A DNA stretch of 64,000 nucleotides. It comes from an uncultured Clostridia bacterium. Its GTDB lineage: Bacteria; Bacillota; Clostridia; Christensenellales; UBA1242. The stretch lies in contig CAKNGB010000003.1 of the NCBI GenBank assembly GCA_930971385.1, positions 21,233 through 85,232 on the forward strand. The letters are read 5' to 3'. A program made the position numbers and the translations under genes. This document shows, piece after piece, positions 3,001 to 53,313 of the stretch (position 1 is the stretch's first letter; each line of letters opens with the position of its first letter). The notes below the pieces were generated by a model. It saw only the letters and a list, made by a program, of their open reading frames with translations. It did not search any database and had not been told where the DNA came from.

Positions 3001-3038
3001 AATTTTGTTTATATTAACAAATAATATAAGGGGTAGTT

Positions 3039-27857: not shown

Positions 27858-30341
27858 ATGTTTGATTGGATTGGCGATTTTTTCGGCGAACTTTTCAGCT
27901 TAATACCAAAGGTTATTTACTTTTTATACGCCTCCTTTATCAGTTTAATCGATTTAATTCAACTTTTGTTCCGTAAACTTGCGGGACTTGATGTTTATTA
28001 TATTGATGGAGATCCTGTGACGGGCGACATTGTCACCAACTTTATTCAAGGTATTCTTGGCATAAACATGGGCTCGGCTTCAGACACCATGGATTATAGT
28101 CCTCTTGTCACTGTTTTTTGGTCGTTTGTTATTTTTGGTGTTATTGTGTGCTTTGTTGCCACCCTTGTTGCCATTGTGAAAAGCCATTATTCTTATAACG
28201 AAAAGTCGGCGAAAGGACCTCTTCCAATCGTGGCAACGGCAGGCAAGGCGCTTGTCAACATTTTTATTGTGCCAATTATCATTGTTTTTGGGCTTTGGCT
28301 TAGTCAAGCAATTTTAACCGCACTTGACGACATCACAACAACAGGAAGTTCAGATATTGAATCGTTGTATGGCGACCGAACTGACATTTTGCAAACAGCC
28401 ACTCGAGAAGACGGTTCAGAAACCTACATATATTACGACATATTTGGCTTCAGCGGAAATGTTGTTTACGGCGAGCGTGAGGCGCTTGGAAATATTGCTG
28501 ACTGGATAAACAACACCTTTGATGCAAACTTGCCAACTGAAATTGACTATGCCAAAATTGCGGCAAACTCTCAGCCTTTCTCGGGCTCAATATTCAAGGT
28601 GGCGGCGTATAACGCTAACCGCGTGAGAAATAATGAATATGTTTCGGATAGCGTTCCAATCACAATCACTGGCTATCATGATGACATGAACCTTTTTAAC
28701 AATGCAAATGGTGACCCTGTTGTGCTTGCGGATATGATTGACACGGCTTTTGCCAACTTCTTACACCTAGATAAAGGTTATCAAATGATATATGATGGCG
28801 ATATTGATCCGGGTGATGTTGCTTATGCAATAAACTATTTAAGTGTTGACCGCTATTTCACGATGTTCTCAACAAACGCCATTTCGTCGTTCTCGAAATT
28901 TAATGTCGGGCTTGTTTGGTATTACTATAACTTGTGGCAATTCAATTTTATTGTCGGATTTGGTGCGGCGATAATAGCCATCTCACTGTTTATTAATTTG
29001 ATTTTCGGGCTTATGGTGCGTTTCTTCTTATGTATCATTTTGTTCCTTGTTATGCCACCGCTTGCCGGACTTGCTCCACTTGACGAAGGGAAAGCCTTTG
29101 GACAGTGGCGAACAACTTTCATTAAACAGGTGATAATTGCCTATGCGGCCGTCGTCGGAATGAATTTGGTGCTTATCTTACTGCCGTATATCAACAAAAT
29201 CGACTTTTTCGACATTGTAATTGCTGACTTAGTCGTTCAAACCTTGTTTATAATTGTGGGCTTGGTTGCCATTAAAAATGTTATCAATGTGCTTTCACAG
29301 GTTATTGGCTCGGATGATTTAAGAGCGCAAGGTGATTCCGTGGCAAGTGAAGTTAAATCCACAGTCGGAAAAGCTACCTTAATGACTGCGGGTGCAGCAA
29401 AATTAGGTGGCAAGGCATTTGCAAACTTAACAGGCGTTGGCATTGCAGGTCAACTTGCAGGAAGAGGTCTCAGAAAAGCAGGTAAAAAGATTGGCGATTG
29501 GGTTGGTAGAGGCGATAGCAAAGCCGCTCGATTTGTCGGACAAGCACAGGGATTTTTAAAAGGTGGAGTGGCAGGACGTAACGCAGTTAGAGATATGCAA
29601 CAAGCACAACTTGCCCAAAGAAGTGCTAAAGCTGATGAAGATATTGCTAAACGTCAAGAAGAAGCTTTAAGAAGGAATCGTGATTATATACAAGGAACAA
29701 AATCGGATATTCTCAACTCATTTAATGGTAAAAACAATGTAAGTGAAGCACAATTAAGAGAAGAAGCTATAAACAGAGGACTTAGTGAAGCAGATGCTGC
29801 AAGCTTTGCACGCGAGGCGTTCCAGTCAGGTGGTGGTAAATTTATGGGTGCTGCAGCATCAGCTAGAGTAAGAGCCGCAGATACAGGTTATGACGCATTC
29901 ATAAGATCTCATGGCAATAGTTACAGCAAAGCCTTAACAGCATTTAATGATATTAATGCAAGAATAGCTGGCTCCAGAAGATTACAGGGCAATGCAAGAG
30001 ATGCTCAGGACGCAGCAGTTGAAAGATATAAAATTGCAAACGGGCATTTGGTTGATTCATATGAGAAGGGCGGTGTTGTTGGTGGAATTTTAGGTGGCAT
30101 GGGTTCAACATTTACTGGCGTTGGCAAACAGATGATGGACAACTATAAGACCATGGCAAACACTGGAATGAAAGAATTTATGGAAGAGTCAAAGCTTACA
30201 CAAAAAACAGATTGGGCTAAAGAAACGGCTCAAAATGTGAATCTTACGAATAAACATATGGCAAACCTTGCAAGACAAGAAGAAGAAACTCAACAACTTT
30301 TGAGACAGTTATATAATGAGTTTAGACGCAATAATCCATAA
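27858..30341 (+). CDS. large polytopic membrane protein with a ~330-aa A/G/K/R/Q-rich helical C-terminal tail; unknown family
   Basis: 827 aa with at least 8 predicted TM segments. The tail starts GKATLMTAGAAKLGGKAFANLTGVGIAGQLAGRGLRKAGKK. RBS AGGAGG. Confidence 0.75.
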   Translation: MFDWIGDFFGELFSLIPKVIYFLYASFISLIDLIQLLFRKLAGLDVYYIDGDPVTGDIVTNFIQGILGINMGSASDTMDYSPLVTVFWSFVIFGVIVCFVATLVAIVKSHYSYNEKSAKGPLPIVATAGKALVNIFIVPIIIVFGLWLSQAILTALDDITTTGSSDIESLYGDRTDILQTATREDGSETYIYYDIFGFSGNVVYGEREALGNIADWINNTFDANLPTEIDYAKIAANSQPFSGSIFKVAAYNANRVRNNEYVSDSVPITITGYHDDMNLFNNANGDPVVLADMIDTAFANFLHLDKGYQMIYDGDIDPGDVAYAINYLSVDRYFTMFSTNAISSFSKFNVGLVWYYYNLWQFNFIVGFGAAIIAISLFINLIFGLMVRFFLCIILFLVMPPLAGLAPLDEGKAFGQWRTTFIKQVIIAYAAVVGMNLVLILLPYINKIDFFDIVIADLVVQTLFIIVGLVAIKNVINVLSQVIGSDDLRAQGDSVASEVKSTVGKATLMTAGAAKLGGKAFANLTGVGIAGQLAGRGLRKAGKKIGDWVGRGDSKAARFVGQAQGFLKGGVAGRNAVRDMQQAQLAQRSAKADEDIAKRQEEALRRNRDYIQGTKSDILNSFNGKNNVSEAQLREEAINRGLSEADAASFAREAFQSGGGKFMGAAASARVRAADTGYDAFIRSHGNSYSKALTAFNDINARIAGSRRLQGNARDAQDAAVERYKIANGHLVDSYEKGGVVGGILGGMGSTFTGVGKQMMDNYKTMANTGMKEFMEESKLTQKTDWAKETAQNVNLTNKHMANLARQEEETQQLLRQLYNEFRRNNP

Positions 30342-30429
30342 AAATTAAGAGGAAAGAGGCAACTCTTTCTTCTTCTTTCATCTTGACAAAACAAGGTTTA
30401 AGTGCTATCATAATATATATGGAGGCGAT

Positions 30430-30687
30430 ATGAAAGGCTTTTTTAAATTACTTAAAGATTTTGCAACTGGAACCTTGGAAATTTTTAAAATTGGATATAG
30501 CGACGCTCTGAAACCATTCACAAATGAGTTAACGGAAGAGGAAAATTATCAAAAACAAACCGCAGAAAACACAGCGAAGATGAATAAAAGTTTAAAGAGA
30601 ACGGAAGAAGAGAAGGCAGAAATGCTTAAAGCCTTAAATGATTGGCAAAAAAACCGCATGAAAGACCTTAAAAACCTTGAAAGATAA
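30430..30687 (+). CDS. small charged coiled-coil protein, unknown function
   Basis: 85 aa, RBS GGAGG, followed by a terminator. Confidence 0.6.
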   Translation: MKGFFKLLKDFATGTLEIFKIGYSDALKPFTNELTEEENYQKQTAENTAKMNKSLKRTEEEKAEMLKALNDWQKNRMKDLKNLER

Positions 30688-30710
30688 AGAGCGATTAAAA
30701 GGTTAAACAA

Positions 30711-30746
30711 GGACATATTGAAATGAAGTCAATATGTTCTTTTTTT
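30711..30746 (+). terminator. rho-independent terminator
   Basis: GGACATATTGA-aatgaag-TCAATATGTTC followed by TTTTTTT. Confidence 0.75.
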
Positions 30747-30913
30747 CGCCGTTTTGAAGTTTTGCGAAAAGATTTATTCTCTTTTTCGAAAGATAAAGTT
30801 TGTGCATTTTGTTATTAATATATAACTTGATTTCGGGCGTATCGCTAAGTCAGACTTTTTGAAAAATATTTTGAAAATTAAAAAACAATTTTTTAAGAAA
30901 ATTTTTTGAAAAA

Positions 30914-30966
30914 ACACAACATCTTGTGATTTTTGTTTGACTTGAACACTATATATATTGTAAAAT
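30914..30966 (+). promoter_or_regulatory. tandem NrdR boxes overlapping the nrdDG promoter
   Basis: Box 1 ACACAACATCTTGTGA (30914-30929) matches 13/16 of the consensus acaCwAtATaTwGtgt. Box 2 ACACTATATATATTGT (30946-30961) matches 15/16. They are separated by a 16-bp gap (32 bp start to start). TTGACT at 30937-30942 and TAAAAT at 30961-30966 form the candidate promoter. Confidence 0.7.
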
Positions 30967-31001
30967 GGAAATGAAAACTTGTTGACAGGAGGGATAAAAA
31001 A

Positions 31002-33161
31002 ATGCAAGTTGTTAAAAGAAATGGAAATATTGTTGACTTCGACCAAACAAAAATCGAAAATGCCATTTCAAAAGCCAATAATGAGGTTTCCGAGAAGGAA
31101 AGAGCAACAGAAAAGGAAATTCAGGAGATTATCCAAAGCATTCTCGCTCTTAAAAAGAAAAGAATTCTTGTTGAGGACATTCAGGACTTTATCGAAGAAA
31201 AACTTATGGCGTATGGGCATTATGAACTTGCAAAAAAGTATATTATTTATAGATACACTCGTGCGCTTGTCAGAAAGGCGAACACCACCGACCAAACCAT
31301 TAAAGAACTTATCGACGGCGAAAGTGAGTATTGGAACACCGAAAACTCCAACAAGAACGCTAGGATTGTCACCACTCAAAGAGATTATCTTGCAGGCATC
31401 ACCAGCACTGATATAACAAGAAGATTTTTGCTTCCAGAGGATGTTGTTAAGGCACATGACGAGGGCATTATTCACTTCCACGACGCCGACTATTTCGCAC
31501 AAAACGCTCTTCACAACTGCGATTTGATAAACTTGGAGGATATGCTTCAAAACGGCACCAACATTAATGGCGTTATGATTGAAAAACCTCACAAATTTTT
31601 GACTGCCATGACCATTGCCACACAGATTATTACGGCAGTTTCGTCAAGTCAATATGGCGGTGCAACTGTCACCATGACACATCTTGCGCCATTTGTGAGA
31701 GATAGTTATAATAAGTATTTGGCAATGTATCGCGCACGCAAACTTAAAGAGGAAGATTGCGTTAAGTTCGCCAAAGAGGATTTGGCACGAGAAATTCGCG
31801 ATGGCGTGCAAACATTCCAATATCAAGTGAACTCCATGACCACCACCAACGGACAAGCGCCATTTTTAAGTGTATGCCTATATCTTGGCGAAACGGAAGA
31901 GTATAAAGAAGAACTTGCCATGATTATTGAAGAGGTTTTGAAACAGAGAATTCAGGGTATGAAAAACGAAAAAGGCGTTTACATAACCCCAGCGTTCCCA
32001 AAACTTCTGTATGTTTTGGAAGAAGATAACATCCATGAAAACAGCAAATATTGGTATCTAACTAAACTCGCTGCCGAATGCACAGCAAAAAGAATGGTGC
32101 CAGATTATATCTCTGAAAAGATGATGTTAAAATATAAAATTGATAAAAATGGCAACGGAAATTGCTATCCTTGCATGGGATGTCGTTCCTTCCTCACGCC
32201 ATATGTTGACCCTAAAACCAACAAACCAAAATATTACGGCAGATTTAACCAAGGCGTTGTCACAATCAATCTTGTTGATGTTGCTCTTTCTTCCAATAAA
32301 GACTTCGACGACTTCTGGAAGATTTACGAAGATAGGTTGGAACTATGCCATAAAGCCTTGAAAATTAGGCATGAAAGACTTTCCAAAATCACAAGCGATG
32401 TTGCACCAATTTTGTGGCAGTATGGCGCACTTGCAAGGCTCAAAAAAGGCGAAAGCGTGCATCCACTTCTGCATGGCGGATATTCCACAATTTCGCTTGG
32501 ATATGCAGGGCTTTATGAATGTGTTAAATATATGACTGGCCACAGCCACACCGATAACGGCAAGGGCAAACAGTTTGCTTTGGAAGTTATGCAAAAACTT
32601 AACGATAAGTGCAAAGAGTGGAAGGAAGCGGAAGATATTGACTACAGCGTTTACGGCACACCAATCGAGTCAACAACATATAAATTTGCAAAGTGCTTGA
32701 AAAAGCGTTTCGGCGTTGTGAAAGGAGTGACGGACAAGGACTATATCACAAACTCCTATCATGTTCCTGTGTTTGAAGAAATCGATGCCTTTTCAAAACT
32801 TAAACTTGAAAGCGAATTCCAGCGTTTAAGCCCGGGCGGTGCAGTTTCCTATGTGGAAACACCAAATCTTCAAAATAACTTGGAAGTTGTTTTGCAAGTT
32901 ATCAAGTTTATTTACGACAACATCATGTATGCCGAACTTAACACAAAATCTGACTATTGCCAAAAATGTGGCTATTCCGGCGAAATTTTAATCGACGACA
33001 ATTTGGAATGGTATTGCCCAAACTGTGGCAACCGCGACCATAACACCTTGAATGTGGCAAGAAGAACTTGTGGCTACATCGGCACAAACTTCTGGAATAA
33101 AGGCAGAACTCAGGAAATTAAGGAAAGAGTTTTGCATATCGACAATAAGGACGACGAATAG
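31002..33161 (+). CDS. nrdD: anaerobic ribonucleoside-triphosphate reductase (class III)
   Basis: N-terminal ATP-cone (VVKRNGNIVDFDQTKI), a C-terminal Zn ribbon (CxxC...CxxC) and the glycyl-radical motif RRTCGYIG. Confidence 0.95.
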   Translation: MQVVKRNGNIVDFDQTKIENAISKANNEVSEKERATEKEIQEIIQSILALKKKRILVEDIQDFIEEKLMAYGHYELAKKYIIYRYTRALVRKANTTDQTIKELIDGESEYWNTENSNKNARIVTTQRDYLAGITSTDITRRFLLPEDVVKAHDEGIIHFHDADYFAQNALHNCDLINLEDMLQNGTNINGVMIEKPHKFLTAMTIATQIITAVSSSQYGGATVTMTHLAPFVRDSYNKYLAMYRARKLKEEDCVKFAKEDLAREIRDGVQTFQYQVNSMTTTNGQAPFLSVCLYLGETEEYKEELAMIIEEVLKQRIQGMKNEKGVYITPAFPKLLYVLEEDNIHENSKYWYLTKLAAECTAKRMVPDYISEKMMLKYKIDKNGNGNCYPCMGCRSFLTPYVDPKTNKPKYYGRFNQGVVTINLVDVALSSNKDFDDFWKIYEDRLELCHKALKIRHERLSKITSDVAPILWQYGALARLKKGESVHPLLHGGYSTISLGYAGLYECVKYMTGHSHTDNGKGKQFALEVMQKLNDKCKEWKEAEDIDYSVYGTPIESTTYKFAKCLKKRFGVVKGVTDKDYITNSYHVPVFEEIDAFSKLKLESEFQRLSPGGAVSYVETPNLQNNLEVVLQVIKFIYDNIMYAELNTKSDYCQKCGYSGEILIDDNLEWYCPNCGNRDHNTLNVARRTCGYIGTNFWNKGRTQEIKERVLHIDNKDDE

Positions 33162-33166
33162 AAATT

Positions 33167-33670
33167 ATGAGATACAACAAAATTAGAAAAATGGACATTT
33201 CAAACGGCCCGGGCGTTCGAGTTTCGCTTTTTGTTCAGGGTTGCACTTTCAACTGCAAAAACTGCTTTAATCCTGAAACTCACGACTTTAACGGCGGAAA
33301 AGAATTTACTGATGAAACCATAAATCATATTTTGGAACTATGCGCCAATGAAAATGTGGAAGGGCTTTCCATTTTGGGTGGCGAGCCTATGCATCCAAAA
33401 AACATCGATGCTGTCACAAAACTTGCCAAAGCGTTTAAACAGCGCTTTCCTGAAAAAAATTTGTGGGCATGGACGGGGTTTTTATTCGACAACTATCTAA
33501 AAGACAAGGAAATTGCCAAATACCTTGATGTTGTGGTGGACGGGCAATATATGGACGAACTGCACAATTTCACGCTCATGTGGCGAGGCTCTTCCAACCA
33601 AAGAGTGATTGATGTGCCAAAGTCGCTGAAAGAAAATAAAGTTATTTTGCTTGCTGGAAATAACAACTAA
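33167..33670 (+). CDS. nrdG: anaerobic RNR activating radical-SAM protein
   Basis: CxxxCxxC cluster (GCTFNCKNC) and LSILGGEP. Confidence 0.92.
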   Translation: MRYNKIRKMDISNGPGVRVSLFVQGCTFNCKNCFNPETHDFNGGKEFTDETINHILELCANENVEGLSILGGEPMHPKNIDAVTKLAKAFKQRFPEKNLWAWTGFLFDNYLKDKEIAKYLDVVVDGQYMDELHNFTLMWRGSSNQRVIDVPKSLKENKVILLAGNNN

Positions 33671-33697
33671 AAATTTAAATCTCTATTGCGAGGAAAT

Positions 33698-34144
33698 ATG
33701 AATTATATTGATGTTAAAATTAAAAAATTAAATGATAAAGCAATCATTCCAACCTATGGAAGTGAGTTTTCGGCAGGTGCTGATTTATATGCTTGCCTCA
33801 ATGACGATGTGGAAATTTCACCAAACGAAACCAAATTCATTAAAACTGGCATTTCAGTGGAAATTCCAGAGGGATTTGTTCTTCTTGTGTTCGCGCGTTC
33901 TGGACTCAGTTGCAAGCAGGGCTTAGCACCAGCAAATAAGGTGGGAGTTGTTGACTCTGACTACCGCGGTGAGGTGGTGGTTGTGCTTCACAATCATTCC
34001 ACGGAAACAAGAAAGATATCGCATGGCGACAGAATTGCCCAAATGGTTATTGTGCCATATTTCAAAGCGAATTTTGAAGAGGTCACCACTCTTTCTTCCA
34101 CTGTGCGTGGCGAAGGTGGTTTTGGCTCGACTGGAAAAAAGTAA
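33698..34144 (+). CDS. dut: dUTP diphosphatase
   Basis: GSEFSAGADLYA, ARSGLS, VDSDYRGEV, GDRIAQ and RGEGGFGSTG motifs. ATG 33698 behind GAGGAA is preferred over the TTG at 33686. Confidence 0.93.
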   Translation: MNYIDVKIKKLNDKAIIPTYGSEFSAGADLYACLNDDVEISPNETKFIKTGISVEIPEGFVLLVFARSGLSCKQGLAPANKVGVVDSDYRGEVVVVLHNHSTETRKISHGDRIAQMVIVPYFKANFEEVTTLSSTVRGEGGFGSTGKK

Positions 34145-34829: not shown

Positions 34830-35252
34830 AAAGTGGACGAGTTAAGTTGGTGAAAAGATATGAAAAAAATTATATGCGAGTTGACCGCATTTTTTAACTA
34901 TAACTTTTCTTTTTTATTTAAAAATATTTTAAAGAAAATAAATATAAAAACAAAAACCAATTAAGTCACGACTGGCTCGCCAGCGGAGTTGTGTTTAACC
35001 ATGGAAAATGTATTAAATTTTAACCACAACTTTTATTTCTTCTTTCTTATTTTTTATTTCAAAATATTTTAGAAGAAAATAGTTATAAAATTCAAAACCA
35101 ATCAAGTCACGACTGGCTCGCCAGCACAGCGCGAGTTGCGCTTGGCCGTGGAAAAGAAAACATTTACAAAACTCTAGATATTTTAACCACAACTTTTATT
35201 TCTTCTTTCTTATTTTTTATTTCAAAATATTTTAGAAGAAAATATTTTGTTT
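34830..35252. repeat. degenerate tandem array (unit ~140-165 bp, ~3.5 copies) abutting attL
   Basis: A perfect 65-bp direct repeat occurs at 35017-35081 and 35180-35244. A 32-bp repeat with 1 mismatch occurs at 34953-34984 and 35094-35125. Progressively decayed copies lie further left (cgagtt-containing hairpin words at ~34846, 34877, 34985, 35131). Confidence 0.85.
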
Positions 35253-35268
35253 TGGTGGTGATAGCTGG
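35253..35268. repeat. attL core (copy of the tRNA-Met 3' end)
   Basis: Identical to 46631-46646. Its reverse complement is CCAGCTATCACCACCA, i.e. T-stem, acceptor and CCA. Confidence 0.85.
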
Positions 35269-35318: not shown

Positions 35319-35345
35319 TTTGACTAAACTTTTGACTAAACTTTT
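35319..35345. repeat. 27-bp internal direct repeat, left copy (candidate integrase arm-type sites)
   Basis: TTTGACTAAACTTTTGACTAAACTTTT, identical to 46494-46520. It is itself 2 x TGACTAAACTTTT. Confidence 0.8.
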
Positions 35346-35379
35346 TTAACAAAAATAAATAGAGGGACTCGCCCTCTAT

Positions 35380-35754
35380 TTATTCTTTATCAGACCTTCT
35401 TTCCACTATTCCAACAGATACTGCTAAAGCAATATCAATCTTCTTTAAAATATCTGGACCTACATTTCCTATTTTTGTTTTTAATCGACTTTTATCTAAA
35501 GTCCTTATTTGCTCTAAGAGAATGATTGAGTCCTCTAATAAATTACAATCTTTCGAAAAAAGTTTAACATGAGTTGGCAATTCTACTTTTTTAATATTTG
35601 ATGTTATTGCAGAAACTACAACAGTTGGCGAAAATTTATTTCCCACATTATTTTGAATTACAACAACTGGACGATAACCACTTTGTTCACTACCTACATT
35701 TTGACCTAAATCACATAAATAAATATCTCCACGTTCAATCATACTTAATTCCAC
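35380..35754 (-). CDS. mazF: MazF/PemK (EndoA-type) endoribonuclease toxin
   Basis: RGDIYLCDLGQNVGSEQSGYRPVVVIQNNVGNKFSPTVVVSAITSNIKKVELPTHV...ILLEQIRTLDKSRL aligns closely, by eye, with B. subtilis EndoA. A hairpin terminator lies at 35354-35382. Confidence 0.92.
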   Translation of the reverse strand: MELSMIERGDIYLCDLGQNVGSEQSGYRPVVVIQNNVGNKFSPTVVVSAITSNIKKVELPTHVKLFSKDCNLLEDSIILLEQIRTLDKSRLKTKIGNVGPDILKKIDIALAVSVGIVERRSDKE

Positions 35755-35987
35755 CTTTTTCTAGGTTTATAATAATAATTAGCAATCTGTTTATTTTTAC
35801 TTTGTTTTTCCATTTCAAACTGTTTGTTTAATTCCAAATATCTTAATCTACAGGTCTTTATATATTCCAACATTTTTAATTTCTCTTCATCAGTGTATTG
35901 TAAAAACAAAATCTTATCTAATAACTCTAATATAGATTTTTCTTCCAAGTTCATTTTTTGTTTTATAGATAATGTTTTTTCTTTCAT
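35745..35987 (-). CDS. putative cognate antitoxin (possibly RHH-like), non-canonical sequence
   Basis: 80 aa. Overlaps mazF by 10 nt and overlaps the Rep stop by 4 nt. An N-terminal TLSIKQKMNLEEKSILELLDKI could form a strand-helix. Confidence 0.55.
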   Translation of the reverse strand: MKEKTLSIKQKMNLEEKSILELLDKILFLQYTDEEKLKMLEYIKTCRLRYLELNKQFEMEKQSKNKQIANYYYKPRKRWN

Positions 35988-37249
35988 AACGGCATTTCTC
36001 CTAATTCCTTTTCATCAATTAAACTTAATTCTTCTTGAAAAGGTTTTTCTCGACTATAAACTATTGAAGCTTTTCCAGTTATATCATATTCATACACTTT
36101 ACTAACTCTCTTCGTTAAACCTTTGACTTTTATTTCCTCTATTGGAATATCTTCCCAAACACTATCACGTTCAACAATATATTGACCTTCAGATACAAAA
36201 TGAATTATTTTATTTATTCTTCTACAAAAAGCACTATATAAAACTTTCAATTTTGGATCATCTTGATATTCTTTATATAAATCTTTCAAAGATAAATTGG
36301 AAACTATGTAAACTTTTGAAAAACAAGCTGGAACCATATCACCTTTGATATTCATCCTCTGTGGAAAAGGGTTTAACAACTTATTCATTTTAGTTATTTT
36401 AACTTGACCAACAAACTCATCCAACATTATACTATCTTGACCTTCATAACCTGTAAACCAATATTCACCATAACTATCAACACGAAATAAATCATTTAAA
36501 TTTTTAAACAATAAATTAACATAAGTAGTTTTCCCAACGCCGGGCGGACCATATATATAAACACACTCAATATTCCTAGCTCGACTTCCAAACTCATTTT
36601 CTAATCTTGACCAATACCTAGATTTTAATAATCGACCATACATAAACGATTGCTTTGGAAAGGTTTCATAAATTGAATTTAAGCTAAAGCCTTCATCAAC
36701 CATTTTTATCATTTTATCTAAGTCAGTTCTTTGGCGTTCATCGACAAATTCGCCTATTTCATATGGGCCACTAACACGTGTATCAACTTTAGAACAATAG
36801 GCTTGACATCTAGTTTTGGTGGAAATCATAGGTTTAAAATGGCAACCGTAAGGAAGTAATTCTTTTACTAATGTAAATCGAGAAGGTGACTTAAAATCTA
36901 CAAAAAATTGAAAATGTATTGTGCCAGTTTTTTCACCTTTCTCTCGTTGGAAAATAGCATATTTTATTCGACCAATATTTTCTAAGTCAATAAAAAATTT
37001 TTCAAATTCCTCATCTGTCATGGCTGGGTTGTTCCAAGTACCTACCCAACAGCAACATCGAGTGTTTTTTCTTTCAGCATCTTTTTCAAGAGTGTCATCC
37101 TCTTGAATTTCAAATGCCTCTTCGTCACTAACATTTATATCTTTCAAAGACTTATCTCCTTTATAGAGGAATGCAGAACCCCCATAGGTAATACTAACTA
37201 TGGGGGTTCTGCCAAAATCAAACTTTTTGATTTCGGCAGAACCAAGCAA
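35984..37249 (-). CDS. rolling-circle replication initiator: HUH endonuclease plus SF3 helicase (circovirus/CRESS-type Rep)
   Basis: Motif I CWVGTWNNP, motif II GTIHFQFFV and motif III AYCSKVD. Walker A GPPGVGKTT, Walker B IMLDEF and motif C IVSN. There is no in-frame ATG before motif I, so the only annotated start is the TTG at 37249 and the true start is uncertain. Confidence 0.85.
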   Translation of the reverse strand: MLGSAEIKKFDFGRTPIVSITYGGSAFLYKGDKSLKDINVSDEEAFEIQEDDTLEKDAERKNTRCCCWVGTWNNPAMTDEEFEKFFIDLENIGRIKYAIFQREKGEKTGTIHFQFFVDFKSPSRFTLVKELLPYGCHFKPMISTKTRCQAYCSKVDTRVSGPYEIGEFVDERQRTDLDKMIKMVDEGFSLNSIYETFPKQSFMYGRLLKSRYWSRLENEFGSRARNIECVYIYGPPGVGKTTYVNLLFKNLNDLFRVDSYGEYWFTGYEGQDSIMLDEFVGQVKITKMNKLLNPFPQRMNIKGDMVPACFSKVYIVSNLSLKDLYKEYQDDPKLKVLYSAFCRRINKIIHFVSEGQYIVERDSVWEDIPIEEIKVKGLTKRVSKVYEYDITGKASIVYSREKPFQEELSLIDEKELGEMPL

Positions 37250-37269
37250 GTCAGCAAACGCTTTGCCTT

Positions 37270-37452
37270 AAGAGGTTTTATTTTGAGCGCACTCCCAAGC
37301 CGTGCAGGCTTGCTGGCCACTCTGGGCGTGTGCCCTCTCTTCGCGGGCGGTGGTCCTCATTGCCGGACAGGCTAGGCTAGAAGAAGTGCGGTGGGCGAGG
37401 GCTTGCGCACTAGCCATGCAAACAAGGCAAGAAGGTTTGCTTTTTCGCTCAA
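37270..37452 (-). other. GC-rich highly structured island immediately upstream of rep (candidate origin/packaging region or structured RNA)
   Basis: A sharp GC-rich patch in AT-rich DNA. The closing pairing is TTTGAGCG (37282-37289) with CGCTCAAA (37445-37452). Nested helices include GGCTAG/CTAGCC, GTGCG/CGCAC, GGCCAC/GTGG(T)CC, GGGC-gtgt-GCCC and CAAGCC/GGCTTG. Confidence 0.6.
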
Positions 37453-37823
37453 ACTATTTCTACATCCTCGTTTTTTGCTAACAAACCCGCTTTCTTTTTT
37501 GGAACGGGTGGCGTCACAGTATATTCTTTATCAGAACTTCCTTTTAAATCAGACTTTTTACTATACATATTCTTCCCTTCTTTTTCAAATGTTGGTAATT
37601 CAATAAAAGCGGGAATTTTTTCATTAATTTGCCTAACGCCCTTTTTATAATCTTTATAAACTTCATGCAAAGCGTTATTTAAAAATTTTTTACCATAGCG
37701 ACCACAAATTTTATAAACAGCAATCTTTTTGCTGAAAACCTCAAAGAGTTCGGAAGCGTCAAACATTAACTGCCTTTTTACTCGCAATCTTTCCATGGTA
37801 TCATCGTTTAAAAATTCTTCCAT
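37449..37823 (-). CDS. hypothetical protein (element-borne)
   Basis: 124-aa ORF between the Zot-like gene and the GC island; no recognisable motif. Confidence 0.6.
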   Translation of the reverse strand: MEEFLNDDTMERLRVKRQLMFDASELFEVFSKKIAVYKICGRYGKKFLNNALHEVYKDYKKGVRQINEKIPAFIELPTFEKEGKNMYSKKSDLKGSSDKEYTVTPPVPKKKAGLLAKNEDVEIV

Positions 37824-38819: not shown

Positions 38820-39077
38820 ATGAATGAAACTGAATTTGCTAAGTGGCTCGAAAAAGACTATTTAAAAGCCAAAAAGTATTTTAAAAAACCAAATATTACA
38901 CATAATCTTGATAATTTAAAAAATGAATACCACCTAGATTATGAAAAATTAAAGCTTGAAGTCGAGAAGTTAGGCTATCATCTAAAACTTGCAAAAGATA
39001 TAGATAATCAAAATTGGAAAGATGTTTGGTCTATTGGTCACTTTTTCGTTTTTTATAAGAACGAGAACGACCTTTAA
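38820..39077 (+). CDS. hypothetical small protein; the only plus-strand gene inside the minus-strand module
   Basis: 85 aa with its own consensus promoter and RBS. Confidence 0.6.
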   Translation: MNETEFAKWLEKDYLKAKKYFKKPNITHNLDNLKNEYHLDYEKLKLEVEKLGYHLKLAKDIDNQNWKDVWSIGHFFVFYKNENDL

Positions 39078-39327
39078 CAAATTCTTGATAATAATCAGTT
39101 TTTAAAACAAAAGGAGTCAATCTTCTTTTGTTTTTATTATACTGACTGCCAGTATAAACCCATACTGCATTTCCTCTTAAAATGCAATCTTCAAAAATAG
39201 ATTTTGCATAATCTATGTCTAAATAATTTGGCAAATTTAATTCGTTTAACAAAGACCTTGTTATTTGACTTTTGCAAATATATAAATCTTTTGTTTCTTG
39301 ACTTGCGAAAGCATTATATTTTTTCAT
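39031..39327 (-). CDS. hypothetical basic protein
   Basis: 98 aa with a basic C-terminus (KGRSRSYKKRKSDQ). Converges with and overlaps the 85-aa gene by 47 nt. Confidence 0.5.
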   Translation of the reverse strand: MKKYNAFASQETKDLYICKSQITRSLLNELNLPNYLDIDYAKSIFEDCILRGNAVWVYTGSQYNKNKRRLTPFVLKTDYYQEFVKGRSRSYKKRKSDQ

Positions 39328-39371
39328 AATATACCTTCCTATGTAAAACCACCAAAAAGGTGGTTTATTAA

Positions 39372-39656
39372 TTATCTAAAATATTTGGTAAGCTCAGATG
39401 CAGGAATGTTTTTTCTACCTTTTCTTCTTTGATAATCAGGATTATTAAACCTAAAAGCTTGCATTTCTTCTACCTTTGCTTGAGCATAGCCTCTCATTAG
39501 GTATCTATCCCTTTCACTTAAAGAATTTAAAAAAGGTTTATTGAAAGCCATAGCCTGTCTAACTCTATATGGTGATTTATAATAACCATAAGAGTGCATA
39601 ATATCTGTTTCTTTACCTCTTTTTGTTCTAAAAACTTTACTGTTTGCCATTTCCAT
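39372..39656 (-). CDS. hypothetical basic protein (possible nucleic-acid binding)
   Basis: 94 aa, R/K-rich, no TM. Confidence 0.5.
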   Translation of the reverse strand: MEMANSKVFRTKRGKETDIMHSYGYYKSPYRVRQAMAFNKPFLNSLSERDRYLMRGYAQAKVEEMQAFRFNNPDYQRRKGRKNIPASELTKYFR

Positions 39657-40053
39657 TATCCTTTTTATATTTGTTTTTATAAAAATCGTAGTAGTTTTTT
39701 ATCATAGTATTTGAAGAATAATCGCGAGGGAATAACCTATAAACTTCACCATTGGTAAGTTCATATTTCACGCAAGTATAAACCCCAGTGATATTTCCTT
39801 CATCATCTAATTTAAATTCATCTACGAGTTTTTTCGACTTTACAAAACCTTTTTGTCCAGTAATAAGAAACGAACGTAAAAGGTCATACAATTTATTTTT
39901 ATCTCTAAAAATAATTTCTTCACCATTAAACAACTTAACAACACATTCGTTATTTACACCGTAATTAGTCTTTTTTGCAATAAGTTTGATATTCTCAACA
40001 ATATCATTTAAATCTTCTCTTAACTTAAATTCTTTTTCTTTAACATTTTCCAT
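39637..40053 (-). CDS. hypothetical protein
   Basis: The start is placed at the ATG at 40053 (MENVKEKEF...). The track's TTG-extended N-terminus (to 40194) looks non-coding. Confidence 0.5.
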   Translation of the reverse strand: MENVKEKEFKLREDLNDIVENIKLIAKKTNYGVNNECVVKLFNGEEIIFRDKNKLYDLLRSFLITGQKGFVKSKKLVDEFKLDDEGNITGVYTCVKYELTNGEVYRLFPRDYSSNTMIKNYYDFYKNKYKKDNGNGKQ

Positions 40054-40199
40054 TTTCTTTTTCCTTTTAAACAAATAAATTTTTATCAAAAACTCGATAT
40101 TCGCGACTATCTTATTCTTGATTGGCAAGAAGAGAACCCAAGGAGTAAAATTCTCTTCTTTGGTGGTGGGTAGTGTTTTAAAAGTCCCCACCAACGCTT

Positions 40200-40808
40200 T
40201 TAAATTGTTAAAGCACTGTCAACTTTACTGAAATCAAAGAACATTAAGTCGTTATTCTCTAAATCTTTCATAGTTATGTCAGATTCGTCCAAGATTGCAG
40301 TGCAAAAGCCGTCAAGTAATATTTCAGCATTTACTTGACCGAAAACACTGTCTATTTCTTCCCCAGTTCCAAGTTCAGGAGTCTTTGAGAAATCTTGAGT
40401 GTAAGACCAAACTTTAACTGCTTGAGCCTCATCCTCAGTTCCTGTAAACCAATAGAGTTCATAAACAAAAATGGTGTTTTCAGCGTCTTTAGTGTCGGTG
40501 CGCCTCATGGCAGCAGACTCGAGAAGTCCTTCATATTTCGCTGTGACATCATCGAGATTATTAATATCGTTTGAAGTCACAACAAAGAAGCCGTCCTCTG
40601 TCAACTTAGCCTCGAAGTCAGCAAGGGTCATTGTTTCGCCTGCATAAGCGTTATCATTTTCAGTTTGAATACCGAAATAGCCTTGAAGTTTATTCTTAGT
40701 ATAATCCCAGTTATCCACCATGAAGAAAATCATAAACGCAGAAAAAACAACTAAAATAACACTTAATATAATGCTAACAATTTTTCCAGCTCTTTTTAAT
40801 CCTTCCAT
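40200..40808 (-). CDS. N-terminally anchored acidic membrane/secreted protein
   Basis: 202 aa with TM helix AGKIVSIILSVILVVFSAFMIFFMV. Confidence 0.6.
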   Translation of the reverse strand: MEGLKRAGKIVSIILSVILVVFSAFMIFFMVDNWDYTKNKLQGYFGIQTENDNAYAGETMTLADFEAKLTEDGFFVVTSNDINNLDDVTAKYEGLLESAAMRRTDTKDAENTIFVYELYWFTGTEDEAQAVKVWSYTQDFSKTPELGTGEEIDSVFGQVNAEILLDGFCTAILDESDITMKDLENNDLMFFDFSKVDSALTI

Positions 40809-40858
40809 TTTTAAACCTCCAACATATACAACTAGACTGCTCGACTACACAGCCCAAA

Positions 40859-42418
40859 CTAATTTACTATCCAATAATCTTCATCTACAAACGCGTCTAA
40901 ATAAGAAACATATGAATATTCTAAAAGAAAATCAAAGCTAAAATCACTTATAGAATAATAGTAATTATTAGGATTTTCACCATAAACACTTATTCCACAG
41001 CGATAATAAGAGTCTAGTCTAATACCAAAAGCAACAGTTAAATCTATATCAGCAAAAGGCTTTACCTCATATATCAAATATCTAGCAGTTCCCTCTTGTA
41101 AAAACTTAACAGTCATTTCTTCAGAATTTTCAAAATTAGAAATCACTACACTTTCAATAAGATTATCCCGTGAAGGTCCGTATCCAACCGTGAAAGTTAT
41201 ATTTGATTGTGATAATTTTTGAAAATATGGTAAACCATCACCTTTATTTATTCCCGCCATAAAGTCATCACTAAAATCATCAGATATAGGAATAAATGCA
41301 TTTAACCCATTAAAATGATAAACTAAATCATACTCCAAATATTTAGGTGTTATTATTGTCCCACTAACAGAATATTTTTTAGTTGGTAAATCTTTTAATA
41401 GAGTTGTAAGAGAAACACTATCAGCAAATTCAAAACTAACAACACTAGACTCTAATTCATCAGATAATGAAGAGTCAACAAGTAAAATATCCGCAACCGT
41501 TAAATTTTCACCATAACGATATACTGTTTCATTACTGCCAGACAAAAAAGAATTATCATGCTCAATAACCAAATCAATATTATTTCCCATAACAGAGTAA
41601 AATGTGCAATCAGAATTTACAAAATACTCACTTAAATCAGCAACATCAGACGAACTTTCACTTGTTGCCCAGCCATAACACCAACGGTCATATGTTTTAG
41701 CAATCTCAGGAATAACAAGTTTTGAACTTTGAAGAACATAGCTAGAAGATACTACGCTGTCATTATCAGAATTGATAAACTCAACTTTATAGTAATCATC
41801 TAAATTCATATTTTCATAAGCCTCAAGTTCAGCCTCTAATCTTGTAATTTCGTTTCCTAAAGAAACCACTTGACTCTCTAAATCATCATTTGCAATTTCT
41901 AATGATGATATTTGACTATTAAGCGAAGAAATGGTTTCTTCATCAAGGCTATTTTGAGTTAAAGCCTCTTCTAATTGATTAGACAAAGTTTCAATTTGAC
42001 CATTTAGAGTTTCAACTTGAGTTTGAGTTTCTGTTAATGTTTCACTTAAAGACTGATATTGTTCATTCAAACCAGAAATTTCCTCATCTTTTTCAGCAAT
42101 TTGTTCATATGCATCAACAAGGTCATCAGCAGTTTCCTGTAGACTACCTTTAACTCTTAACAAATCTTCATTTAACGAAGAAATAGTTTCTTTATCAATC
42201 TCATTTTGACTCAAAGAAATTGTTAATTGACTAGTTATATCATCAATTTCAATTTGATATTCACTAATTTGGTTTCGCAAATCAGCAACTTCTTCAATTG
42301 TGGAACTATTTTCTTCAATATATCTTTCATTATTGGCATACATGATACCAAAAGTAATGCCACATATTGAACCACCAAAAAGAAGAACGATAACTATATA
42401 TCCTATAACCTTTTTCAT
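40859..42418 (-). CDS. N-terminally anchored coiled-coil protein with a beta-rich C-terminal domain (candidate receptor-binding/virion protein)
   Basis: 519 aa. TM helix VIGYIVIVLLFGGSICGITFGIMYA. A ~190-aa heptad-rich region has an internal repeat (QNEIDKETISSLNEDL / QNSLDEETISSLNSQI). Confidence 0.65.
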   Translation of the reverse strand: MKKVIGYIVIVLLFGGSICGITFGIMYANNERYIEENSSTIEEVADLRNQISEYQIEIDDITSQLTISLSQNEIDKETISSLNEDLLRVKGSLQETADDLVDAYEQIAEKDEEISGLNEQYQSLSETLTETQTQVETLNGQIETLSNQLEEALTQNSLDEETISSLNSQISSLEIANDDLESQVVSLGNEITRLEAELEAYENMNLDDYYKVEFINSDNDSVVSSSYVLQSSKLVIPEIAKTYDRWCYGWATSESSSDVADLSEYFVNSDCTFYSVMGNNIDLVIEHDNSFLSGSNETVYRYGENLTVADILLVDSSLSDELESSVVSFEFADSVSLTTLLKDLPTKKYSVSGTIITPKYLEYDLVYHFNGLNAFIPISDDFSDDFMAGINKGDGLPYFQKLSQSNITFTVGYGPSRDNLIESVVISNFENSEEMTVKFLQEGTARYLIYEVKPFADIDLTVAFGIRLDSYYRCGISVYGENPNNYYYSISDFSFDFLLEYSYVSYLDAFVDEDYWIVN

Positions 42419-42428
42419 TTTTCACCTC

Positions 42429-43787
42429 TTAATCATCATTAAATATTGAGAATGGAGCAGTTATCAACCACCAAATTCCCTTAAACAACCATTTAAAGCA
42501 AAAACTTAAAAACTTAAATAATGCAGGTAATATAATAGGAGCAAGGACAACAACAGCAACCACAATCAAAACTATAGCAATAATTGTAGCAATCATTTTT
42601 AAAATACGCTCCCAAACACTTATCTGTTCATTCCCAGGAGTAATATCACCAGTAGTTTTATTATCAACAACACCTAAATTAAAAATAACTCCGTCATATT
42701 CAAATTTTAAATATAGTATAGTGACATCAACAACGCCAGTTCCATAACCAACTAAATCACCAAAATAACCACCATGCTGTGTATATTCAGACTCATAAAA
42801 TCTTAATACCCATTGTTTATTTTTAATATTATTTTTTGTTTCTTCAGTTAAATCTTCGCTATCAATAAAATCAGAAACTGTTTGTATTCTGTTCCAAGTA
42901 TGACTATCACCAAATAGACCAACTGTCTGATTATTAACTACATCATGATTAGTCAAAACTATTTGATGAAAAACATCATTCTCTTCATTTCTATCTTCAA
43001 CATTGATTATCGGCGTTCCATGCAAAGTTTTATATTCCCAAGTATAAAACGAAACTTCAGCCTCGATAATATCATCCATGGGTCTATCTAACGAAAAAGC
43101 AACATAGTGACTATCTGAACTATAAGTAAACCATGCCCAGCCATCCAAATACCTTAAAAAATCAACGTATTTATCAACGACTTCAACAGTTTCGGTTTCA
43201 ACACAAGTATAAGAAACTTCACCATTTACAGTAGATGCAGTCCATAACTGTCCAACACTATACGAAACTTCGCTTGTAATATTATCATTTTCACTTGGAA
43301 CGTCAATATTTTCATCAAAAACACGATAAATTGAAGAAATATCATAATACCTTAAAGCATCTTCTTTAACACCAAAATCATTTACCAAATACTTATAAAA
43401 AACACCATTTGAACTTAATAACGATAAATCATAATTCACATAATACAAATTATCATTAATTCCAGTAGAAATATTAATTGATGTTGCTTCTAAATTAAGA
43501 CTCTCACCGCTTGGCTGATAAACATAAACGAATAACTCTTTATCGGAACTTTCTGCTATTTGAATAACTTGTAATGAATAATCATCTTCAACAATAGGAT
43601 ATTTACTAACATCAAAATTTTCATCTTTCTCTAAATCTTCTAAAACAGAAGAATAAATTGTTTCAGTTTCAGCAGAAGTTTTAAAATATATAGAAATTGA
43701 CAATAAGCAAGAAAAGATAAGCATTAAAATTACTAACGCTTTAAAAACATTATTATAGTTTATCCTTTTAATTTGCTTATTTTCCAT
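42429..43787 (-). CDS. type-I membrane protein: signal peptide, large ectodomain and C-terminal anchor (g3p-like architecture)
   Basis: 452 aa. N-terminus VFKALVILMLIFSCLLSISIYFKTSA. C-terminus MIATIIAIVLIVVAVVVLAPIILPALFKFLSF. RBS GTGAGGAA. Confidence 0.65.
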   Translation of the reverse strand: MENKQIKRINYNNVFKALVILMLIFSCLLSISIYFKTSAETETIYSSVLEDLEKDENFDVSKYPIVEDDYSLQVIQIAESSDKELFVYVYQPSGESLNLEATSINISTGINDNLYYVNYDLSLLSSNGVFYKYLVNDFGVKEDALRYYDISSIYRVFDENIDVPSENDNITSEVSYSVGQLWTASTVNGEVSYTCVETETVEVVDKYVDFLRYLDGWAWFTYSSDSHYVAFSLDRPMDDIIEAEVSFYTWEYKTLHGTPIINVEDRNEENDVFHQIVLTNHDVVNNQTVGLFGDSHTWNRIQTVSDFIDSEDLTEETKNNIKNKQWVLRFYESEYTQHGGYFGDLVGYGTGVVDVTILYLKFEYDGVIFNLGVVDNKTTGDITPGNEQISVWERILKMIATIIAIVLIVVAVVVLAPIILPALFKFLSFCFKWLFKGIWWLITAPFSIFNDD

Positions 43788-43797
43788 AATTCCTCAC

Positions 43798-43974
43798 TTA
43801 TGTTCCAATAAAACAACTCTCGTAAACTTCCAAAGCCCTTTTATCTCTTTCTAAAAGATAATCTTTATAAACATTGGCTTGCTTTCGTGTTTCAAACCTA
43901 CGCTTTATTCGAGGACAAGCGGGATTATACACAACAAAAACATTTTCTATTTTTTCAATTTTATATTTTGTCAT
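43798..43974 (-). CDS. small ORF (58 aa) missed by the track; possible AP2-like DNA-binding fold
   Basis: ATG at 43974 behind GAGGTG. Sequence: MTKYKIEKIENVFVVYNPACPRIKRRFETRKQANVYKDYLLERDKRALEVYESCFIGT. Confidence 0.45.
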   Translation of the reverse strand: MTKYKIEKIENVFVVYNPACPRIKRRFETRKQANVYKDYLLERDKRALEVYESCFIGT

Positions 43975-44203
43975 TTACACACCTCACTTTATGCCCTTTA
44001 AATTCTGGTGTTTTTTGAAACAACATAGCATATTCGAAATTACCATGTTTTTTCATTGCTTTTATAAGACTGACTTCATTTCCAGTCCTTGCAACTTGCT
44101 TTAATTCCTTTTCTGAAGCCTTATATTTTTTCCTTAATTCACTTTTCTTTAGGTTATAGGCTAAATTTTTTTGATAATCTGTAAAAAACACGGGCCACCT
44201 CAA
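43961..44203 (-). CDS. hypothetical small basic protein
   Basis: 80 aa with a TTG start overlapping the stop of the upstream small ORF. Confidence 0.45.
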   Translation of the reverse strand: MRWPVFFTDYQKNLAYNLKKSELRKKYKASEKELKQVARTGNEVSLIKAMKKHGNFEYAMLFQKTPEFKGHKVRCVNDKI

Positions 44204-44373
44204 ATCATCTTTTTATTTCCGCTTTTATCAACTTCATAAAAAAGCTGACCAACATTGCACGGAATATCAAACAATTTAAAGACTTCTAAAACTTTAGAAA
44301 CTTGATCTTGATTAAAACCAGACACAGAAGTTCCAGTTAAATCACAAATAATAACCATATCATTTTTTTTCAT
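44200..44373 (-). CDS. small ORF (57 aa), first gene of the leftward operon (Cro/early-regulator position)
   Basis: ATG at 44373 behind AGGAG. Sequence: MKKNDMVIICDLTGTSVSGFNQDQVSKVLEVFKLFDIPCNVGQLFYEVDKSGNKKMI. Below the track cutoff. Confidence 0.5.
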   Translation of the reverse strand: MKKNDMVIICDLTGTSVSGFNQDQVSKVLEVFKLFDIPCNVGQLFYEVDKSGNKKMI

Positions 44374-53237: not shown

Positions 53238-53313
53238 GGAAGTTTAGCTCAGCTGGGAGAGCATCTGCCTTACAAGCAGAGGGTCATAGGTTCGAGCCCT
53301 ATAACTTCCACCA
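53238..53313 (+). tRNA. tRNA-Val (anticodon TAC), CCA encoded
   Basis: GGAAGTT/AACTTCC acceptor, TCTGC-CTTACAA-GCAGA anticodon arm and ATAGG-TTCGAGC-CCTAT T-arm. Confidence 0.92.

Follow-up and report, generated by a model that had tools for sequence, protein, structure and literature searches.

We describe a replication gene, rep, in a 64,000-nt stretch of contig CAKNGB010000003.1 from an uncultured Clostridia bacterium (the whole stretch is called the window below, and all positions refer to it). The gene very probably codes for the protein that starts rolling-circle replication of a temperate element, 11.4 kb long, that is integrated in the 3′ end of a tRNA-Met gene. Its product is a replication initiator of the type found in DNA viruses that have a single-stranded, circular and Rep-encoding genome (CRESS-DNA viruses), with an HUH endonuclease (here HUQ) fused to a superfamily 3 (SF3) helicase. 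This identity, proposed in the original prediction from motifs, is borne out by Pfam, by a match to the Rep of porcine circovirus 2 (PCV2) and by the motifs themselves. The element as a whole is a well-supported addition to a known kind of bacterial element, integrated and equipped with a CRESS-type Rep.

The open reading frame (ORF) to which the prediction referred (35984..37249, minus strand, 421 aa) is present in the window, and all six of the motifs claimed for it are found there (CWVGTWNNP, HFQFFV, AYCSK, GPPGVGKT, IMLDEF and IVSN). In Pfam, Rep scores above the curated cut-offs of Viral_Rep PF02407 (E=1.6e-9, 38.3 bits, cut-off 26) and RNA_helicase PF00910 (E=4.3e-7, 30.8 bits, cut-off 21.5). 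It does not fall into an ordinary Rep_1, Rep_2 or Rep_trans family without an SF3 helicase. Its best sequence match among solved structures is full-length PCV2 Rep (7LAR, E=4.4e-17), in an alignment that pairs query residues 33-313 with chain residues 16-280 and thus spans both domains. The second-best is the nuclease domain of the Master-Rep of the nanovirus faba bean necrotic yellows virus (FBNYV; E=1.9e-12). An AlphaFold2 model of Rep was built on 50 family members and has a mean predicted local distance difference test score (pLDDT) of 88.4. Using Foldseek, this model was matched to vientovirus Rep 9PQQ (E=9e-13) and again to 7LAR, with a target TM-score of 0.82 and an rmsd of 2.2 Å for the PCV2 ATPase domain, and a TM-score of 0.89, an rmsd of 1.8 Å and 35% identity for the FBNYV nuclease.

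The features by which a CRESS-type Rep is recognised, namely nuclease motifs I-III, the SF3 motifs and a nonanucleotide in a loop near rep, are all found at this locus. Residues T37, H78, Q80, Y117, G200, K206 and R310 are invariant across 50 homologs, and K120, T207 and N284 are nearly so. The dN/dS ratio of rep is 0.055 (at dS 0.49) against its 94%-identical relative in contig L186. Given this ratio and the intact catalytic residues, rep is intact and under strong purifying selection, and is not the decayed pseudogene that the original prediction had allowed for. In total, 121 Rep homologs were collected, with identities down to ~30%. The bacterial contigs that carry them are as long as 576 kb, and most come from gut metagenomes and metagenome-assembled genomes (MAGs). 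The relatives in GTDB genomes were obtained by an alignment-based scan, a single-sequence scan of the same genomes with Rep having returned none, and IMG/VR contained only distant relatives (identity ≤34%). PHROGs and NCBIfam were uninformative for Rep and its neighbours. The family is unannotated: NCBIfam has no model for it and its members carry almost no source names, so annotation pipelines will call its members hypothetical.

Rep also carries an extra beta-rich C-terminal domain (approximately aa 313-365, window ~36053-36211, pLDDT >90) that is absent from PCV2 Rep. After this domain comes a flexible acidic tail (35984-36010) ending in MPL. A tail that ends with the pattern [LIMV]P[FWL] within the last three residues is seen in 75 of 120 homologs (P0001-P0120), for example as DDDLPF, DDEIPF or GDLPW. 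The C-terminal tip of the bacterial single-stranded DNA-binding protein (SSB) reads D-D-D-I/L-P-F, and the similar form of the Rep tail suggests docking onto the host proteins that read this tip. By analogy, and purely as a hypothesis, the acidic tail may dock Rep onto proteins of the host replisome.

The original prediction placed the start of translation at TTG 37249 or at another non-ATG codon. The upstream in-frame stop (37268-37270) and the lack of an in-frame ATG ahead of motif I are both readable from the sequence, and the non-ATG start stands; the position 37249 does not. A start at the in-frame TTG 37147-37145, 102 nt downstream, is the most likely and would give a product of 387 aa. 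This codon is preceded by AAAGGAG with a spacer of 8 nt, and a homolog of 94% identity begins (MKDINISDEE) exactly at this codon, aligned to L-K-D-I-N-V in the window. Contig L186 has the same TTG and the same Shine-Dalgarno sequence, the rep of L187 also starts with TTG, and L003 has an ATG at the corresponding position, behind AAAGGGGG. In Bacillota there is nothing unusual about a start at TTG when a strong ribosome-binding site precedes it. Because the 34 codons from 37249 to 37148 overlap two hairpins, and because members of the Rep family are mostly 380-390 aa long, these codons are best read as translated origin hairpins and not as protein. The same over-extension is seen in homolog P0005 (411 aa), where the peptide "...PKVSITFG..." has its counterpart in PIVSITYG of the window, which is the nonanucleotide read as codons.

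A search for a nonanucleotide-type nick site on a stem-loop, proposed along with the original prediction, was positive. The nonanucleotide TAGTATTAC lies on the rep strand at 37196-37188, in the loop of a hairpin directly upstream of rep whose 3′ end is 25 nt, and whose nonamer is 40 nt, from the TTG start. TAGTATTAC is the standard nonanucleotide of circoviruses (e.g. PMC8950603, PMC4447918). It occurs once in the 64-kb window, where 0.34 occurrences are expected by chance, and the count alone is therefore not significant. What gives the nonamer its weight is the setting in a hairpin loop on the rep strand, just upstream of rep. The 101-nt origin region folds at -22.6 kcal/mol against -7.7 ± 2.0 for shuffled sequences (z=-7.4). 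By analogy with characterised Reps, nicking would be expected between T37190 and A37189.

The arrangement is conserved among relatives. The 19 related bacterial loci came from GTDB genomes (L003-L013) and assembly contigs (L094-L097, L186-L187 and L189-L191); L188 and L190 were outside the scan. Fifteen of the 19 carry, upstream of rep and on its strand, a hairpin with a nonamer in the loop, which is exact TAGTATTAC in 13 and AAGTATTAC in two (L094/L095). L011 and L012 have no such arrangement, and two of the non-carrying loci have no upstream DNA. The same nonamer hairpin also stands upstream of rep in bajarodino virus 30 and in dozens of IMG/VR contigs with distant Reps. Fourteen origin hairpins were aligned without gaps. 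Loop positions A15 to C22 do not vary among them, and the 12 stem pairs are 96.4% paired, a figure that is inflated and partly circular because the script that picked the hairpins accepted only stems of 6 bp or more. No such circularity affects the compensatory changes or the constancy of the hairpin's position: 11 of the 12 pairs show changes on both sides, and the stem covariation score is 1.20, compared with 0.25 for shuffled alignments (0/500 reach the observed score) and at most 0.33 when the partner strand is slid.

A second hairpin next to the first (GGTTCTGCCGAAATCAAA / TTTGATTTTGGCAGAACC) has the GCAGAACC arm in common with it, and for this reason GGTTCTGC is present at the origin in two direct copies and one inverted copy. 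These repeats are candidate Rep-binding iterons. In relatives, iterons abut the 3′ arm of the origin hairpin, as five copies of TGACGCAT in L096 (7534-7700) and five copies of GTCGCA in L187 (~6730-6870). Circoviruses have repeats beside the hairpin in the same layout. At its gathering threshold, Rfam reports only two tRNAs in the window. Below that threshold, the model RF03070 (ssNA-helicase), which describes a hairpin upstream of helicase/Rep genes, overlaps the window hairpin at 37175-37207 with 22.7 bits (E=0.08; gathering score 41.5), and with 47.7 bits the same model passes its gathering score on the origin hairpin of the related locus L019. This class of hairpin is therefore already catalogued, though not as a replication origin; Rfam lists RF03070 as a candidate RNA, whereas for the window hairpin the best reading is a replication origin in DNA.

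Upstream of the origin lies a GC-rich non-coding block. Its core (37299-37398) is 93% identical to L186, compared with 60-66% identity for flanking non-coding DNA and ~64% at synonymous sites. The motif GACCAC..GGGCAnnCGCCCAGAGnnGCCAGC of this block is common to L096 and L187, the Reps of which are only ~38-41% identical to that of the window. L003 and L191 are without the block and have TGTGG-type repeats in its place (TGTGGAAAT in L003). RNAalifold applied to four sequences of the block gave a short hairpin only. Neither Rfam nor the plasmid and phage collections gave a match to the block, and a 19-mer scan of GTDB with it returned only chance matches, in high-GC genomes. In the intergenic region of phage Ff, the minus-strand origin and packaging signal occupy a comparable position, and the block is by its position a candidate for either function.

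That Rep lies inside a bacterial integrated element, as originally claimed, is borne out by the attachment (att) repeats and the integrase, which indicate site-specific integration. The element is 11,378 bp long and lies between two copies of a 16-nt repeat, TGGTGGTGATAGCTGG, which occurs exactly twice in the window with no occurrence expected by chance. Pairs of TTTGACTAAAC stand just inside both ends, and the motif is also found at the integrase end of related contig L096 (1-40). On a circular form these pairs would flank the att core, and they are probably integrase arm sites. The element has a GC content of 25-34%, except in the kilobase with the GC-rich block (38%), compared with 36-43% in most of the flanks. 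From the tRNA, the genes run in the order integrase, XRE repressor, lipoprotein, three small ORFs, orf452, orf519, four ORFs, ATPase and orf124, followed by the non-coding region, rep, an 80-aa ORF and MazF. The order int-xre-...-orf452-orf519-...-ATPase-orf124-ori-rep recurs in Christensenella- or Clostridia-labelled MAGs, again beside tRNAs. Three proteins of the conserved module have membrane signatures: orf202 has an N-terminal transmembrane (TM) segment, orf519 is membrane-anchored (N-terminal TM) with a coiled coil, and orf452 combines an N-terminal signal with a C-terminal TM anchor. The lipoprotein beside the repressor is a candidate superinfection-exclusion protein. The features of the locus are collected in Table 1.

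Table 1. Features of the integrated element and of the Rep protein, with coordinates in the window.
Feature	Position	Strand	Evidence or remarks
rep, HUH(HUQ)-SF3 replication initiator, 387 aa, probable TTG start	35984..37147	-	Motifs, Pfam, PDB match, model
Rep nuclease motifs			I, T37/N39-N40-P41 (T37-W-N-N-P); II, H78-F-Q80; III, Y117-C-S-K120
Rep SF3 motifs			Walker A, G200..K206-T207; Walker B, D243-E244; motif C, S283-N284; Arg finger, R310
Plus-strand origin hairpin	37173..37212	-	Perfect 15-bp stem, 10-nt loop TTAGTATTAC; folding, conservation
Second hairpin (GGTTCTGCCGAAATCAAA / TTTGATTTTGGCAGAACC)	37205..37243	-	GCAGAACC arm in common with origin hairpin
GC-rich non-coding block, ~190 nt, upstream of origin	37262..37450	-	GC 60-72% in an element of ~28% GC
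Conserved ORF (orf124), 124 aa, between ATPase and origin	37449..37823	-	
Zot-like P-loop ATPase, 307 aa	37832..38755	-	No transmembrane segment
Conserved module, nine ORFs	39031..44373	-	orf98, orf94, orf185, orf202, orf519, orf452, orf58, orf80b, orf57
XRE/Cro-CI type helix-turn-helix repressor	44547..44906	+	
Lipoprotein	44910..45293	+	LTGC lipobox; beside repressor; 57%-identical homolog in L008
Tyrosine integrase	45363..46502	+	
tRNA-Met gene	46631..46707	-	3′ 16 nt (46631-46646) are the other att core, right boundary
att core copy TGGTGGTGATAGCTGG	35253..35268	+	Displaced tRNA-Met 3′ end, left boundary
TTTGACTAAAC, two copies	35319..35341	+	Second pair at 46494-46516; just inside element ends
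80-aa ORF	35745..35987	-	Translationally coupled to rep, ATGA overlap
MazF/PemK-family toxin, 120 aa, ATG 35742	35380..35742	-	PF02452, E=4.5e-32

The original prediction regarded this Rep type as typical of CRESS-DNA viruses and a few bacterial plasmid groups, and the rarity in bacteria that this implies is overstated. Kazlauskas and colleagues (with Varsani, Koonin and Krupovic) described in 2019 about 240 bacterial HUH-SF3 Reps in tRNA-integrated elements, as groups pCRESS1-9 (PMC6668415). Roux and colleagues described in the same year the inovirus Rep family iPF_00203, which has an S3H domain (PMC6813254), and the bajarodino inoviruses in GenBank carry related Reps. Outside pCRESS7 and pCRESS9, ~97.5% of the pCRESS Reps are in elements integrated by tyrosine recombinases, mostly in tRNA genes, and none of the elements was reported to encode a known viral structural protein (PMC6668415). 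The HUQ variant of motif II is common to pCRESS3, circoviruses, nanoviruses and smacoviruses, and there is no word of a nonanucleotide or a stem-loop origin in the main text of the 2019 paper (PMC6668415).

Compared with these groups, the window Rep has the HUQ motif II and the D-E Walker B of pCRESS3, and the TxNNP motif I and IVSN of pCRESS2 and CRESS viruses (TxNNP and the motif C Asn are found in pCRESS3 as well). Its element is like those of pCRESS2/3 in size (~5-12 kb), in having a tyrosine integrase and direct repeats, and in its integration in a tRNA gene. The sole PLSDB match of Rep was RepA of the Bifidobacterium plasmid p4M, a pCRESS3 member (28% identity, 1e-17). Unlike pCRESS2/3, the window Rep has an added C-terminal domain of ~75 aa. 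In contrast to the pCRESS family i elements, the ATPase here is Zot-like and not FtsK-like, and no SSB gene was found in the element. The window Rep, with YCSK as its motif III, lacks the YLxH signature of pCRESS4-8.

To place the family, we calculated a neighbour-joining tree of 64 Reps (292 columns, 200 bootstraps), which must be regarded as rough. Its references came mostly from Dataset 3 of the 2019 paper, with PCV2 represented by a fragment and p4M taken from the plasmid record; pCRESS sampling consisted of eight typed pCRESS1-3 sequences plus p4M, and pCRESS4-9 were left out. The window family formed a clade of its own, with internal nodes at 90-100% and a family root at 26%, and was not nested within the pCRESS1, 2 or 3 references. 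On one side of it stood pCRESS2, basal and paraphyletic, and on the other pCRESS3 clustered with the eukaryotic CRESS viruses (52%); this position is unreliable given deep support of 26-52%. Reps of bajarodino viruses and of 5-10-kb IMG/VR contigs lay elsewhere in the tree, near pCRESS1/2.

The Reps of Circoviridae, Nanoviridae and Redondoviridae (PCV2 7LAR/8XMS/6WDZ, FBNYV 6H8O, vientovirus 9PQQ) have the same two-domain architecture and fold as the window Rep, and these systems also resemble it in the motif set, including HUQ, in the TAGTATTAC stem-loop upstream of rep and in the repeats beside the hairpin. Identity to these Reps is only 21-35%, however, and the window Rep adds the C-terminal domain and the SSB-tip-like tail. 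Whereas Cressdnaviricota have circular single-stranded DNA (ssDNA) genomes of ~2-6 kb with Rep and capsid genes, the locus described here is an 11.4-kb element, integrated in a bacterial chromosome, without a jelly-roll capsid gene or any match to a capsid family. The best annotated match of Rep (E=3e-30) is to Dipodfec virus RodF1_123 (L098, OM869688.1), a 2-kb CRESS virus that has a capsid gene, a Rep and the nonanucleotide. The record of this virus gives Microviridae as the taxon, seemingly a misclassification of a CRESS-DNA virus.

A further likeness is to members of iPF_00203 and the bajarodino viruses (PQ006165, PQ006184, PQ006185), which are small, circular or integrated, encode Zot and have a rolling-circle Rep with an S3H domain. 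In bajarodino viruses 13 and 30, Zot is followed by the TAGTATTAC hairpin and then by rep. The circular genome of bajarodino virus 12 (9.8 kb, from a rodent faecal virome) has an integrase, a repressor, a Zot gene and orf452 in common with the window element; its orf452 homolog is 36% identical (E=1e-55) and its ATPase homolog 24% identical (E=2e-5). The bajarodino Reps differ from that of the window, with which they share ~30% identity, in being of the HUH form and in belonging to a different clade, near pCRESS1/2. Bajarodino virus 12 (L180, PQ006185.1) itself has no annotated Rep, and its 1.5-kb unannotated stretch (1979-3532) has no match to the window Rep; its replication gene may be of another type. 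The window element differs from Inoviridae in that its ATPase is without a transmembrane segment and a major coat protein is not recognisable.

The ATPase matches Pfam Zot just over the cut-off (E=2.7e-4), and 9 of 11 aligned members of its family match the same model (best 3.7e-8). The top PDB fold match of its structural model (pLDDT 89) is the N-terminal domain of Neisseria Zot (2R2A, E=8.8e-9), followed by the B204 packaging ATPase of Sulfolobus turreted icosahedral virus 2, and the top named matches in BFVD are Inoviridae Zot proteins. An FtsK-like identity was considered and rejected, as FtsK is in neither the PDB nor the BFVD fold list. By analogy, the Zot-like ATPase and the conserved membrane proteins suggest that the single strand could be exported in a virus-like particle.

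Several results weigh against reading rep as the initiator of a temperate element, or against the extension of that reading to a virus. The nick position, the helicase activity and excision are all inferred from better-known systems. No empty integration site was found in the genomes matched through NrdD, which have ~82% DNA identity and lose synteny after the dUTPase gene. A circular-junction sequence was not recovered: L094 and L096 are without terminal overlap, and the 55-nt terminal overlap of L007 is tRNA/att sequence and thus ambiguous as a circular form. A promoter/terminator scan, which overlooked the hairpin downstream of mazF, found nothing promoter-like between the GC block and rep. 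The GC block alone folded no better than shuffles (z=-1.45 and -0.14), so that a structured minus-strand origin is unsupported, and the selection of hairpins described above lessens the value of the pairing percentage. The ATPase has no hydrophobic segment in sequence or model, whereas Roux et al. (2019, PMC6813254) accepted a pI as genuine only with one or two TM domains. When all element ORFs of 25-130 aa were scanned by hydropathy for a small transmembrane coat protein, none with a ribosome-binding site was found except the lipoprotein, and no element ORF matched an SSB family. With no SSB, no coat-like ORF and no TM segment on the ATPase, virion formation stays conjecture; it is possible but unproven, and an inovirus identity of the element is not established.

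These same results bear on the most serious rival, in which the element is a non-viral, integrated plasmid of pCRESS type that would use the same Rep and origin for rolling-circle replication after excision, but whose DNA is not packaged and whose ATPase serves segregation or translocation. The Reps of pCRESS1-3 occur in just such tRNA-integrated elements, which also encode a tyrosine integrase and an ATPase and for which no viral structural genes were reported (PMC6668415). The want of a coat-like small transmembrane ORF, of any structural match in PHROGs among the element proteins, and of the TM segment expected of pI all fit a plasmid, as does the MazF module, which is typical of plasmids. 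Contrary to this, the best folds of the ATPase are the filamentous-phage Zot domain and viral packaging ATPases and not FtsK, the Pfam Zot model is matched by most of its family, homologs of both orf452 and the Zot-like gene are present in a virus from a faecal virome, and no MOB relaxase, FtsK domain or SSB was detected in the element. On balance, we regard the plasmid explanation as a realistic one, with a somewhat less than even chance of being correct.

We give little credence to the suggestion that the locus is a decaying prophage remnant, its rep inactive or kept for a non-replicative role. The lack of recognisable structural genes in the element would fit such decay, but the low dN/dS and the intact Rep motifs do not, nor do the two att copies, integrase, repressor and origin, all intact, the conservation of the non-coding origin and GC block above the neutral level, or the same gene order in many genomes. 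That rep was recently acquired from a CRESS-DNA virus of eukaryotes, the route suggested for phytoplasma pCRESS9, instead of being an anciently bacterial gene, is very improbable despite the capsid-encoding virus that is its best annotated match and the nonanucleotide identical to that of circoviruses, given how many and how divergent its homologs in bacterial contigs are, the synteny kept in Clostridia MAGs, the clade of its own outside the eukaryotic-virus cluster and a rep GC content that fits the AT-rich element.

If rep is the initiator of a temperate element, as we favour, its replication can be outlined by analogy with the Reps of circoviruses, nanoviruses and geminiviruses. After integrase-mediated excision (or possibly in situ), Rep would bind the GGTTCTGC repeats and extrude the hairpin. 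Tyr117 would cut TAGTATT/AC, leaving Rep linked to the 5′ end; the hexameric SF3 helicase would then unwind the duplex while a host polymerase extends the 3′-OH. With one round completed, Rep would cut and re-join the strand to release a circular single strand. The conserved GC-rich block may prime the complementary strand or mark the strand for export, and the [LIMV]P[FWL] tail of Rep may dock onto host replisome proteins. MazF and the coupled 80-aa ORF would stabilise the element.

Downstream of rep, the original prediction described an operon with mazEF, linked by overlaps of 4 nt and 10 nt. The 4-nt overlap holds, as the ATGA (35984-35987) between rep and the 80-aa ORF. The start of MazF is more plausibly ATG 35742, behind AAGGTGG with 8 nt of spacing and 2 nt past the stop of the 80-aa ORF, in which case there is no 10-nt overlap. 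MazF itself is confirmed by PF02452, and a hairpin followed by a T-run (~35345-35376) comes after its gene. The name mazE is unproven, as the 80-aa protein matched no MazE or other antitoxin family; it had no match in Pfam, PHROGs or NCBIfam and shows no MazE/AbrB-type domain, and is a candidate antitoxin by position only. A 67%-identical homolog of this ORF lies directly after rep in L003 (11179-11415) with no MazF present, so the ORF may not be, or not only be, the antitoxin of MazF. The cargo downstream of rep varies among relatives, with a PemK toxin in L008, L011 and L187, a DUF7448 protein in L189 and a SpoIIIAH-like protein in L191.

Outside the element, the 34891-35250 region next to the left att site contains three tandem-like repeat units of ~126-163 nt, with two 68-nt copies that are 99% identical and a GC-rich core, GTCACGACTGGCTCGCCAGC, in two of the units. 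Earlier integrations may have left them behind, or they may represent a small RNA. The host backbone further left (27858-34144) encodes an 827-aa multi-pass membrane protein and an nrdD-nrdG-dut cluster, and a second tRNA gene (Val) lies at 53238-53313. The host belongs to an uncultured gut lineage of Bacillota: its NrdD has 95% identity to that of 'uncultured Clostridia bacterium BRZ_EH__bin128', and further NrdD matches carry the labels Bacilli, Tenericutes, Clostridium sp. CAG:914 or Ca. Scatovivens.

A very large class of eukaryotic ssDNA viruses has its proposed ancestors among bacterial elements with CRESS-type Reps. The present locus adds direct evidence that such elements use the circovirus origin, a TAGTATTAC stem-loop with adjoining repeats, and by tying a CRESS-type Rep to a Zot-like, virus-type ATPase module it bears on whether the ancestry lies with plasmids or with viruses. 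Also new are a large Rep family (121 relatives), the likeness of the Rep tail to the SSB tip and the conserved block of GC-rich non-coding DNA. Taken singly, none of all these additions changes the known picture. A bolder view, which we consider unlikely, is that the element represents a family of temperate ssDNA viruses of gut Bacillota that have a Zot-like ATPase and membrane proteins but no classical inovirus coat, and whose Rep and TAGTATTAC origin form a lineage next to the Reps of pCRESS3 and of circoviruses, nanoviruses and smacoviruses. Were this true, the CRESS replication module would already be viral in bacteria, and not only plasmid-borne, and the Rep would recruit the bacterial replisome through a tail that mimics the SSB tip.

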